Source: an uncultured Candidatus Saccharibacteria bacterium (GTDB taxonomy: Bacteria; Patescibacteriota; Saccharimonadia; CAILAD01; CAZGYV01). Taken from it: a stretch of 55,235 bases of DNA. The notes beneath the pieces were generated by a model that made no database searches, had not been told where the DNA came from, and saw only the letters and a program-made list of their open reading frames with translations. Below are positions 31,005-48,495 of this stretch, piece after piece (the first letter of the stretch is position 1; every line of letters starts with the position of its first letter). The stretch is from contig CAZGYV010000004.1 of the NCBI GenBank assembly GCA_964530725.1, forward strand, positions 1 to 55,235. Direction: 5' to 3'. Both the position numbers and the translations under genes were made by a program.

Positions 31005-31886
31005 ATGACTGGCTACTTGCTCGCTTTTATTAGTTCGCTTTTCTTTAGTATTTACGTTGCACCTCGTAAGCTATCCAAGCTGAAACCTATTGAGTTTAGC
31101 CAACTAATGGCTATTGGTTATTTTACCAGCACGGTTATTCTTTACTTATTTAAGCCTGTGTTGGGCTTCCACGAAACCCTGTCGCCCACCCTTCTATTAG
31201 CAGTGCTTGGCGGTGCAATATGGGCAGCTTCTTTTGTAACCTTTGTTAAAGCCATTGATGTACTCGGACTTTCTCGCTCCAACCAATGGAAAAATCTACA
31301 AGGTCCAGTTGCGGCAATTGGTGGCTTGATTGTACTCAATGAAGTTCAAACTACTCAACCCGTTTTTGTTTTATTAGCAGCTTTGGCAATCTTTGCTTCG
31401 GCGGCTACGCTTACAATCTCTACTAGCAAGCAAGAAGCTCGTGCCAACTTACGAGGCGTTTATATGGCTGCACTTGCTGGGCTAGGATTTGGTACGACTG
31501 CTGTTATACAAAAACATGTAACTACGAATGTCGGCGTATATTCTCAGCAGGTTGTTTTGAGCTTCTCAATTATGGCAAGCATTGCCTTGTATCTGCTTAT
31601 TACAAGACAGAAGCTGCCTCGAATTAAGCCTAGTGATAGGCAAACCCGACTAGGATTATTGGCTGGCATATTATACTTAGGAGCAAGTTTCTTTCAGCTA
31701 CAATCCTATCGGTTTCTTCCAGCGTCTATCGCTTTTACAATCATTCAACTAAATGCTGTTTGGACAATTGGAATAGGCATTCTGTACTTCAAGGAAATAC
31801 CGTTCAAAGAAAATCGCAACAGAATACTTCTTGGCTTAATACTCGCTATTGCTGGTATTCTCTTGCTCGGCTTAGCTCGCAAGTAG
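31005..31886 (+). CDS. DMT-superfamily (EamA/GRP sugar-transporter-like) permease
   Basis: 293 aa, about 10 TM helices in two similar halves. Confidence 0.65.
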   Translation: MTGYLLAFISSLFFSIYVAPRKLSKLKPIEFSQLMAIGYFTSTVILYLFKPVLGFHETLSPTLLLAVLGGAIWAASFVTFVKAIDVLGLSRSNQWKNLQGPVAAIGGLIVLNEVQTTQPVFVLLAALAIFASAATLTISTSKQEARANLRGVYMAALAGLGFGTTAVIQKHVTTNVGVYSQQVVLSFSIMASIALYLLITRQKLPRIKPSDRQTRLGLLAGILYLGASFFQLQSYRFLPASIAFTIIQLNAVWTIGIGILYFKEIPFKENRNRILLGLILAIAGILLLGLARK

Positions 31887-32039
31887 CTAGATACTATAAG
31901 CTTTTGAACAGCTGATCTAAGGTCATGCCAAGCGACTTGGCAATCTTGAATAGTGTATTACCCAAGCAGAATATTACCAAAAGCATACTAACTGGCGTAA
32001 GCAACTCGAACGATAAATTACCAGCTCAAGGCGTCAACA

Positions 32040-32280
32040 TTCGTGTGCACTACTAGGCACATCCGAGAAACGGGATAAGACGTACTAAAATGTACGTCGA
32101 ATGAGTATCGGAGGATGTAACGACGTAGGGTACATGAAGTTGGTGCCTCCAGAGATGTTAAGACCTATTTTCAAGAGTAAAGTACAAGGAAGCAGTGAGG
32201 AGCGGAATAAGTCGTAGTAGGAGCTACGATGAATGAGTACCGCAGCTGATGACTAAGTAATTTGCCTTGAAAATAGGCCG
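32040..32280 (+). ncRNA. candidate structured RNA, unclassified (duplicated hairpin module inside a long-range helix)
   Basis: Lies in the 408-nt gap between convergent genes. Module 1 (32071-32110) and module 2 (32203-32242) share CGG[G/A]ATAA-stem-loop-stem-GAATGAGTA[T/C]CG, with compensatory stem changes. A GGAGG/CCTCC plus ATGTA/TACAT helix spans 32110-32150. A 12-bp helix pairs 32164-32175 with 32266-32277. The strand call rests on one G-U pair. Confidence 0.3.
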
Positions 32281-32294
32281 AAGTCAGGCGAGGC

Positions 32295-33197
32295 TCAGGC
32301 TTTCTTAGCCCGTGACGAAGCCCCCAACTTCTCATCCCCCACCCAGATCGCCACACCAAGACCAATGATAAAGAGGTGGCCGGCTACTTCGGTCGGACCG
32401 AGCAGCAGCGCCGTTAAGCCCATCAGCCCGGCCAGCATGGCCGCCACCAGGCGCGTACCAATTCGCAGCGCCAGCAGCACGCCAAAGAGCAATTCCATCG
32501 ACCCGGCAAAAATGATAAACCATAGGTCGCTGACACCGAAAACCGCCAACAAATTCCAATGATGGGTCTGCAAAAACTTCTCAGCCAGCGCGAGATTGAA
32601 TAATTTCTCCGTAAATGCCAGCACAGCCAGGCTCAGGCCGGTCAGGAAGCACCACGCCGGCAGGGCATAAGACTGATATTTTTTCAACGGCGCCTGAGCA
32701 GATCGCAAAAGCGCGTCCAAGCTCCACGCCCCGCTTCCCACTATAATCAAAAACACCGCCGCACCGGCGTACTCGAGATGCTCAAATAGGCCAAGCGGCG
32801 GACCATACAGACCGCTAGCCGCGTAAAGCAAAAGCAGGCCGATGGCGCTATAGCGAGTCGCCAGCCCCAGCGTCAGAAGCACGCCGAGGATGAATTCAGC
32901 CGCCAGTAAGCCGGTATTATCGACCGGCAGGTTGGGCGCGAAGAGTTGCCCTTGGAGCGAGAAAATCACCAAGCTCAAGCCGATCGTGGCACCAACGACG
33001 CTGGGCACAAACGGCCGCTTGGCCGCCAGCCGCTCGGCAATCGCCAGATTCAAGCCCTTAGCCCGCTTATCGACAAGCACGAAAAATGCCGCCCCGCCCA
33101 GGACAATCGCCAGCGACACCAGCCACTGCACGCCCGTGATCGCCACCGGCGCCACACTCTCGGCGTGCTCAAACCATTTCAAATGCGCCAGATACAA
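32295..33197 (-). CDS. polytopic membrane protein, DoxX-like (tentative)
   Basis: 300 aa, about 8 TM helices, GC-rich coding. The family call is weak. Confidence 0.6.
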   Translation of the reverse strand: MYLAHLKWFEHAESVAPVAITGVQWLVSLAIVLGGAAFFVLVDKRAKGLNLAIAERLAAKRPFVPSVVGATIGLSLVIFSLQGQLFAPNLPVDNTGLLAAEFILGVLLTLGLATRYSAIGLLLLYAASGLYGPPLGLFEHLEYAGAAVFLIIVGSGAWSLDALLRSAQAPLKKYQSYALPAWCFLTGLSLAVLAFTEKLFNLALAEKFLQTHHWNLLAVFGVSDLWFIIFAGSMELLFGVLLALRIGTRLVAAMLAGLMGLTALLLGPTEVAGHLFIIGLGVAIWVGDEKLGASSRAKKA

Positions 33198-48420: not shown

Positions 48421-48495
48421 TGGCTGGGACGGAAGGGGTCGAACCTTCGATCTCCTGAGCCAGAATCAGGCGCCTTACCACTTGGCCACGTCCCA
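48421..48495 (-). tRNA. tRNA-Gln (anticodon CUG), CCA encoded
   Basis: Reverse complement is TGGGACG-TG-GCCA-AGTGGTAA-GGCG-CCTGA-TTCTGGC-TCAGG-AGATC-GAAGG-TTCGACC-CCTTC-CGTCCCA-G-CCA. It folds as a full cloverleaf and is very similar in layout to E. coli tRNA-Gln. Confidence 0.92.

Follow-up and report, generated by a model that had tools for sequence, protein, structure and literature searches.

What occupies the 408-nt gap at positions 31887–32294 of the window, the 55,235-nt stretch of Candidatus Saccharibacteria DNA analyzed here in full, and does it hold an RNA gene? A sequence-only reading had described the gap as ORF-free, as lying between a DMT transporter gene and a DoxX-like gene, and as containing a candidate novel structured RNA. 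The gap sequence matched the one quoted in that reading, it has no long ORFs, and its setting was confirmed, with a RhaT/GlcU-like DMT transporter gene on one side (31005–31886, plus strand) and the DoxX-like gene on the other (32295–33197, minus strand; TGA stop codon at 32295–32297). Of the proposed RNA, the selected fold, the plus strand, and the absence of an Rfam family were upheld, but an RNA gene confined to the gap was not. The two modules that had been taken for a single-locus RNA are two of 20 copies in this genome and belong to a family that is spread in Patescibacteria. We consider it probable that the gap holds, in tandem, two copies of a palindromic insertion element that is dispersed in the genome, resembles by description the Rickettsia palindromic elements (RPEs), and has a strand-specific fold under selection. 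The element is about 115–150 nt long.

Two hairpins in the gap

The plus strand of the gap folded at −125.5 kcal/mol (z = −5.55 against dinucleotide shuffles, with 0 of 100 shuffles as good), and the minus strand gave a z of −4.12 against such shuffles. The MFE fold consisted of two neighboring long hairpins at 32029–32150 and 32164–32277. A covariance model of the family (R1, described below) found exactly two matches in the whole window, copy 1 at 32029–32150 (plus strand; 91.8 bits, E = 2.6e-24) and copy 2 at 32164–32277 (plus strand; 92.8 bits, E = 1.3e-24). Copy 1 has a copy-specific outer helix of approximately 19 bp (32030–32049 with 32129–32148) and a conserved 88-nt core at 32047–32134 (plus strand), as defined by R1 and the structure of alignment A4. 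From base to tip, this core begins with CUAGG, followed by helix P2 (CAUCC/GGAUG), the purine-rich internal loops GA/GNA, A/A, GNA/GA, and tandem GA/GA, and the apical stem GACGUAC/GUACGUC with the loop UAAAAU. Copy 2 has an outer helix of 12 bp (CCTATTTTCAAG/CTTGAAAATAGG), and its conserved 88-nt core (32179–32266, plus strand; R1) carries the apical stem GUCGUAG/CUACGAU with the loop UAGGAG. The MFE folds of 32020–32160 (copy 1) and 32155–32290 (copy 2) were −56.1 and −43.6 kcal/mol, respectively.

Most of the structural details noticed by eye hold within these two copies. The stems quoted for the modules, GACGTAC (32079–32085) with GTACGTC (32092–32098) and GTCGTAG (32211–32217) with CTACGAT (32224–32230), were found as described, and the flanks of both modules are nearly identical. 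The 12-bp long-range helix reported around the second module (32164–32175 with 32266–32277) is real and constitutes the outer helix of copy 2; it is also present in an 84% paralogue at C3:361–504. A nested helix proposed between the modules (GGAGG-ATGTA...TACAT...CCTCC, 32110–32150) was abandoned because its bases pair elsewhere in the family structure: GGATG forms a helix with the preceding CATCC (32061–32065), and GTACAT is part of the outer helix of copy 1.

The statement that the gap could not be matched to a familiar RNA class was tested with Rfam and stood at both gathering and permissive thresholds. At gathering thresholds, the only match in the window was a tRNA at 48424–48495, and none lay in the gap. 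At E values up to 10 over 31700–32500, two chance matches of 16.9 and 14.6 bits were obtained, far below the cut-offs. SRP RNA, the hairpin ribozyme, and box C/D RNA, each suggested by short motif likenesses, were rejected on mismatching registers and on the lack of an Rfam match. A search of the window for promoters and terminators gave nothing above chance.

According to the covariance-model scan and the fold, the left part of the gap (31887–32028) lies outside the element. It contains a small hairpin, TGCCAAG-CGA-CTTGGCA, near 31926–31944. Similarity of this part elsewhere was limited to short BLAST matches in two places: the hairpin region (31900–31967) showed 83% similarity over 53 nt to G026:C6:3232–3284, and a 30-nt match was located on contig C1 of the window's own genome. 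The hairpin region may mark where the DMT transcript ends, or it may belong to a further small repeat.

The family, its fold, and its folding strand

A BLAST search with the gap detected further partial copies on other contigs of the 816.8-kb genome. Eight copies were aligned (alignment A3) and gave a consensus hairpin with covarying helices, from which the covariance model R1 was built (88 positions, 25 pairs). With R1, 20 copies were found in the window's own genome (G000, 0.82 Mb), among them three tandem pairs with members approximately 130 nt apart. Homologues were also present in relatives, with R1 matches in 33 of 61 genomes and 15 of 25 genera of the order, where the number of copies per genome ranged from 0 to 22. 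Among 301 genomes sampled evenly across the phylum Patescibacteria, 30 had matches, belonging to many families and classes, and the internal loops and the apical stem were conserved across the phylum.

Several smaller observations concern the arrangement of copies. In a genome of another class (G152:C1:165–218 kb; L154–L156), at least eight copies lie on one strand within approximately 52 kb, and two of these copies have cores that are 91% identical and share almost nothing outside the core. Orphan 5′ halves adjoin full copies at C2:88438–88475 and C6:2611–2648 of the window's genome and are probably remnants of further tandem copies. A second small repeat, AGATCCTGAA-NNN-AGTTCAGGATGAC, forms a hairpin (C3:343–365 and C2:23713–23735 of the same genome) and at two loci stands immediately 5′ of an element copy.

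The copies are old. Mean pairwise identity of the cores was 53%, and the best pair in the window's genome, copy 2 of the window and C3:406–492, was 85% identical and also had the outer helix in common. Consequently, no recent mobility is seen in this genome. A terminal inverted repeat common to all copies was not found; the outer helix is specific to each copy and is shared by this one paralogous pair only.

The element is a rod-like hairpin composed of the copy-specific outer helix P1 at its basal end (12.7 bp on average) and the 88-nt core. Above P1 stand the CAAGG.../...RACG loop and helix P2; above P2, a GA/GNA loop, 2 bp, an A/A mismatch, 2 bp, and a GNA/GA loop; and above these, an RY/RY helix of 2 bp, a tandem GA/GA loop, and the conserved apical stem CGUAS/SUACG. 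Five purine-rich internal loops are thus conserved (GA/GNA, A/A, GNA/GA, tandem GA/GA, and CAAGG.../...RACG). The core helices P2 and P3 are free to vary in sequence while pairing is kept, and the apical loop varies in sequence and in length (5–8 nt in 103 copies).

Covariation was assessed in alignment A4, an order-level set of 103 distinct copies, and in A5, an independent set whose 36 copies were taken mostly from outside the class. In A4, which was aligned to the model and is thus biased towards its structure, standard pairs were present in 92.7% of pair cells. The three compensatory stem changes seen by eye in the gap turned out to be part of a family-wide pattern, in which all 25 pairs of A4 showed changes on both sides (0 of 500 shuffles reached the observed values). 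The covariation score of A4 was 0.736, compared with 0.227 for shuffled alignments and 0.06–0.09 for slid partners. A5, subject to the same bias, was 96.3% paired, with a score of 0.734 against 0.196 when shuffled. In a model-free check with a MAFFT alignment that predated any model, 12 of 23 pairs had compensatory changes. The covariation scores support the earlier suggestion that the structure is under selection. No frame was open through the core in every copy (the three frames were open in 49, 40, and 41 of 103), and coding therefore does not explain the conservation; a conserved coding frame, or 'relay ORF', was rejected as a family feature on the same ground.

The strand on which the fold is kept could also be identified. 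In A4, the modelled strand had 174 G-U/U-G pairs against 51 A-C/C-A pairs, and the excess extended to P1 (58 against 36), which is mostly outside the model and scored neutrally. Folding energies also favored the modelled strand: of 102 copies, 89 were more stable on it under RNA parameters and 100 under DNA parameters; the reverse complement folds too, at a mean of −37.3 kcal/mol across copies. The choice of the plus strand as the folding strand in the gap was confirmed by the wobble excess and by strand stability. G-U exceeded A-C both in copies antisense to local genes (163:43) and in sense copies (30:14), which argues that the selected fold is that of the element's own strand and not of the host mRNA.

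Placement, filled and empty sites, and copies inside genes

The placement of the copies follows a pattern. Of 102 cases, 85 have an antisense gene as the nearest neighbor 3′ of the model, and in these the 3′ end of the core is 15–21 nt (mode 16–18) from the stop codon of the neighbor, with P1 filling the interval. The neighbors are housekeeping genes without relation to one another, and different genera and families repeat the same placement, as at ftsE|ftsX, mreB|mreC, pnp|udg, after groEL, rpsI, ssb, and rplL, and ahead of efp. The antisense position behind the DoxX-like stop codon in the window is the usual one of the family; the core of copy 2 ends 29 nt from that stop codon, on the opposite strand, against the modal distance of 16–18 nt. 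The pair of copies in the window is simply behind the DoxX-like gene, with nothing to tie it functionally to either neighboring gene.

In one family (f5), a sense copy is located in the leader of a yebC-like gene (L076:1430–1620, L099, and L104). It lies downstream of a promoter-like box, GAAAAATGCTATAAT, and the 3′ strand of its outer helix overlaps an AAGGAG ribosome-binding site, so that this copy may influence translation.

Orientation was also compared with the replication strand. In the window's genome, all 20 copies, including those in tsaD, are on the negative-GC-skew strand, which is the minority coding strand of the respective contig, and the local GC skew on the model strand was negative in 97 of 103 copies. 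Relative to genes, copies run in both orientations in two complete genomes, and an orientation fixed by the replication strand was therefore rejected: the bias is strong, but it is not a rule.

Comparison of the same site among relatives revealed filled and empty states, with copies standing as insertions between operon genes that in relatives abut or overlap. Of the 30 genomes compared at ftsE|ftsX, 20 show overlapping stop and start codons (ATGA/GTGA); the genes are separated by 20–31 nt in five others and by 151–166 nt containing the element in the remaining five. The site is filled in G011 and empty in its four congeners, and it is empty in G001, which belongs to the same family as the window's genome. 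Filled ftsE|ftsX sites are bracketed by (A/G)TGA...ATGA, with the result that stop and start are both kept, and the flanking repeat is perfect in G011. A possible target-site duplication was discernible at ftsE|ftsX only, and none was at lepA or mreB|mreC. The mreB|mreC site is filled in three of 29 genomes (G000, G002, and G006), the other 26 having 0–67 nt; the insert begins there directly after TAG, so that TGA is not required. In two ftsE|ftsX copies (C1:57134–57284 in G000, and L111 in G002), we read a frame of 51–52 codons on the mRNA strand, bounded exactly by the ftsE stop (TGATG in G000, GTGA in G002) and by the ATGA of the ftsX start. This frame could carry ribosomes across the insert, but it is not general in the family.

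Copies were also found in frame inside genes, within loops of essential proteins. In the window's genome, polA has one such copy (residues 386–415 of 958), lepA has one (residues 68–97 of 640), and tsaD has two in tandem, with the modelled strand as the coding strand. PolA, LepA, and TsaD are intact, and the insert interrupts the family profile. In other genomes, the in-frame hosts include LeuRS, TrmD, RarA, PolA, TsaD, MnmA, MutM, and ValRS, and copies inside ORFs occur in both orientations. LeuRS, TrmD, RarA, MnmA, MutM, and ValRS are likewise intact, their family profiles being interrupted by the insert. A free-standing or cis-regulatory RNA would not be expected to lie in frame within essential genes, and in either orientation, as these copies do. 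The lepA site comprises 6 nt, and is empty, in 25 relatives, and it is filled with an additional 141 nt in G000 and 138 nt in G018, both multiples of three. In G002 (L175), 54 nt separate the anchor motifs of lepA, corresponding to a 48-nt in-frame remnant that retains the outer ends only, the core having been deleted; such copies thus decay by internal deletion.

Origin of the element and comparison with known systems

Taken as an insertion element, the family would be explained as follows. The element would be, or would have been, copied as a unit into new sites. Selection would act on the fold of one strand, the plus strand in the window, whichever way the host gene runs, and the G-U wobble and G-A-rich loops would favor that strand. 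The selected form would then be one of the element's own strands, as ssDNA or as an RNA of the element, rather than host mRNA. A putative trans-acting factor presumably recognizes this single-stranded form, which would be what is recognized and copied. Copies would persist where they are harmless, that is, at gene ends and at stop/start junctions with both signals kept, and copies in surface loops would persist when their length is a multiple of three.

An alternative that we regard as unlikely is that the host has selected a structured module (RNA or ssDNA) with its own function at each locus, for example as the binding site of a putative Patescibacteria protein under purifying selection per locus, and that insertion was only its route there. 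Phrased for the fold itself, and viewed with comparable doubt, the element might be a strand-specific single-stranded module whose fold is selected per locus and which repeatedly colonized the same essential-gene codons and stop/start junctions; the codons in question would be the LepA turn before DTPGH, one TsaD loop, and one PolA loop. Copies at the same locus bear on this alternative. Between G000 and G002, same-locus copies were 78–89% identical. In nine pairs of same-locus copies from different genera, 21 double changes kept the pair and five broke it, and among single changes nine were pair-keeping against 16 pair-breaking. Compensatory double changes between same-locus copies of different genera and families occur even in polA and tsaD, and polA copies of two families were 59% identical, with 24–25 of 25 pairs forming in both. 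Copies at pnp|udg persist across families with an identity of 0.60–0.70 against a background of 0.53; same-site copies across families were overall at most slightly more alike than random pairs. The phylum-wide conservation of internal loops and apical stem also agrees with a host-selected module. The compensatory changes within loci suggest that the fold is being selected where it sits, a constraint that would be superfluous for a purely selfish relic, and the same-locus pattern may reflect either such selection or the filling of the same sites more than once.

Other observations weigh against a module maintained by the host. Close relatives carry anywhere from 0 to 22 copies, congeners differ in which sites are filled, lepA of G002 holds a decayed remnant, and copies occur in both orientations and inside ORFs. 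Template-switch mutation in quasi-palindromes could produce double changes without selection. A partner protein was not found either. A K-turn bound by L7Ae had been suspected from the tandem G-A loops and was rejected because L7Ae/YbxF (PF01248) was detected in 0 of 61 genomes, the search being positive in seven control genomes; CsrA, discussed below, was likewise detected in 0 of 61. If the strand-specific module, found in many lineages of Patescibacteria, were nevertheless the true explanation, an undescribed structure-guided copying or docking system with a partner protein would be implied, and if the fold is truly selected in place, a nucleic-acid-binding system is still to be found.

The insertion element, which remains our preferred explanation, was also searched for a mobilizing partner. 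No transposase or autonomous version of the element was found, and half-element HMMs detected no autonomous copy split by an ORF in the window's genome. A REP/RAYT model was rejected: the Y1 transposase (PF01797) is present in five of 61 genomes and does not track copy number, being absent from G000, G002, G016, and G037 (9–22 copies) and present in G004 and G053, both of which lack copies. A retroelement partner was rejected as well, with reverse transcriptase in 14 of 61 genomes and no tracking of copy number. The window's genome contains a reverse-transcriptase gene at C6:15815–16567 (RVT_1, 51 bits), which shows no tie to the element.

It is very unlikely that the copies form hairpins at the 3′ end of the mRNA of the upstream gene, where they would terminate transcription or shield the message from 3′ exonucleases in the manner of REP or ERIC. 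Copies do lie 0–20 nt past the stop codons of the highly expressed genes groEL, rpsI, rplL, ssb, mreB, and pnp, and the reverse complement folds well both in the window (z = −4.12) and across copies (mean −37.3 kcal/mol), but the mRNA strand of antisense copies has 43 G-U against 163 A-C pairs, the purine-rich loops also oppose this explanation, no terminator-like site was found in the window, and copies are located in ORFs, in 5′ leaders, and in sense orientation as well. Least credible of all is the free-standing small RNA first proposed for the gap, a sponge for a GGA-binding protein such as CsrA/RsmA: the strong fold, the covariation, and several GGA motifs in the gap agree with it, but none of the 61 genomes has a CsrA (PF02599) match in a search that recovered the controls E. 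coli, B. subtilis, and T. maritima, the apical-loop GGA is peculiar to copy 2 (TAGGAG; TAAAAT in copy 1) and is not conserved in the loops of the family, the window has no promoter or terminator above chance, and the genome carries 20 copies, some of them in coding sequence.

These results have consequences beyond the gap. The genomes of Patescibacteria are tiny, with almost no spare DNA, yet the fold is conserved from class to class and occurs in approximately one tenth of the sampled genomes. The inserts lengthen essential proteins by 30–95 residues and split genes that were once translationally coupled, which makes the copies a visible force in the evolution of reduced genomes. The family also gives reason for caution in RNA discovery, since very strong covariation alone does not indicate an RNA gene; here, the covariation signal stems from an insertion element that is also found inside coding sequence. 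No specific description of the element was found in the literature on Saccharibacteria and CPR or in Rfam, and this strongly covarying structure appears to be undescribed so far.

The element shares features with several known systems. The attC site of integrons is an imperfect hairpin in which structure is conserved over sequence; its folding strand is antisense to the gene upstream, and it lies directly behind the stop codon of that gene. In this general outline of attC, the conserved structure, the antisense folding strand, and the position after a stop codon are alike; in contrast to attC, RYYYAAC/GTTRRRY boxes are not visible in the element, there are no cassette arrays, and copies are located inside essential operons and ORFs. 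REP/REPIN sequences with RAYT are also extragenic palindromes placed after genes, sometimes in tandem, and are thought to act as single-stranded hairpins (PMC2817692). The element differs from them in being three times longer, in its conserved internal loops, and in the absence of a Y1 transposase from the window's genome. MITEs such as Correia/NEMIS, ERIC, RUP, and Nezha resemble the element as short, non-autonomous long stem-loops with filled and empty sites in relatives and a frequent position at gene 3′ ends (PMC3184786). Unlike these MITEs, the element has no universal terminal inverted repeats, no cognate insertion sequence was found for it, a possible duplication is seen at one site only, and its copies are phylum-wide, ancient, and highly diverged.

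The closest description is that of the RPEs. According to the passages on RPEs in PMC10969869 and PMC3184786, which refer to Ogata et al. (2000), these are dispersed hairpin repeats of small reduced genomes that lie between genes and in frame inside housekeeping genes and have no transposase of their own; RPE families are described in the corresponding passage of PMC10969869 as encoding a conserved peptide. The element differs from RPEs in belonging to another phylum, in that only the 88-nt core is conserved, with helices covarying down to the mean identity of 53%, in the strand specificity of its fold, and in that no single frame is open in all copies. The likeness noted here lies in the description: both are dispersed hairpin repeats of approximately 100–150 bp in reduced genomes, intergenic as well as in frame, and without a transposase. 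The element thus shows the behavior characteristic of RPEs, that of a palindromic repeat residing in frame inside unrelated protein genes.
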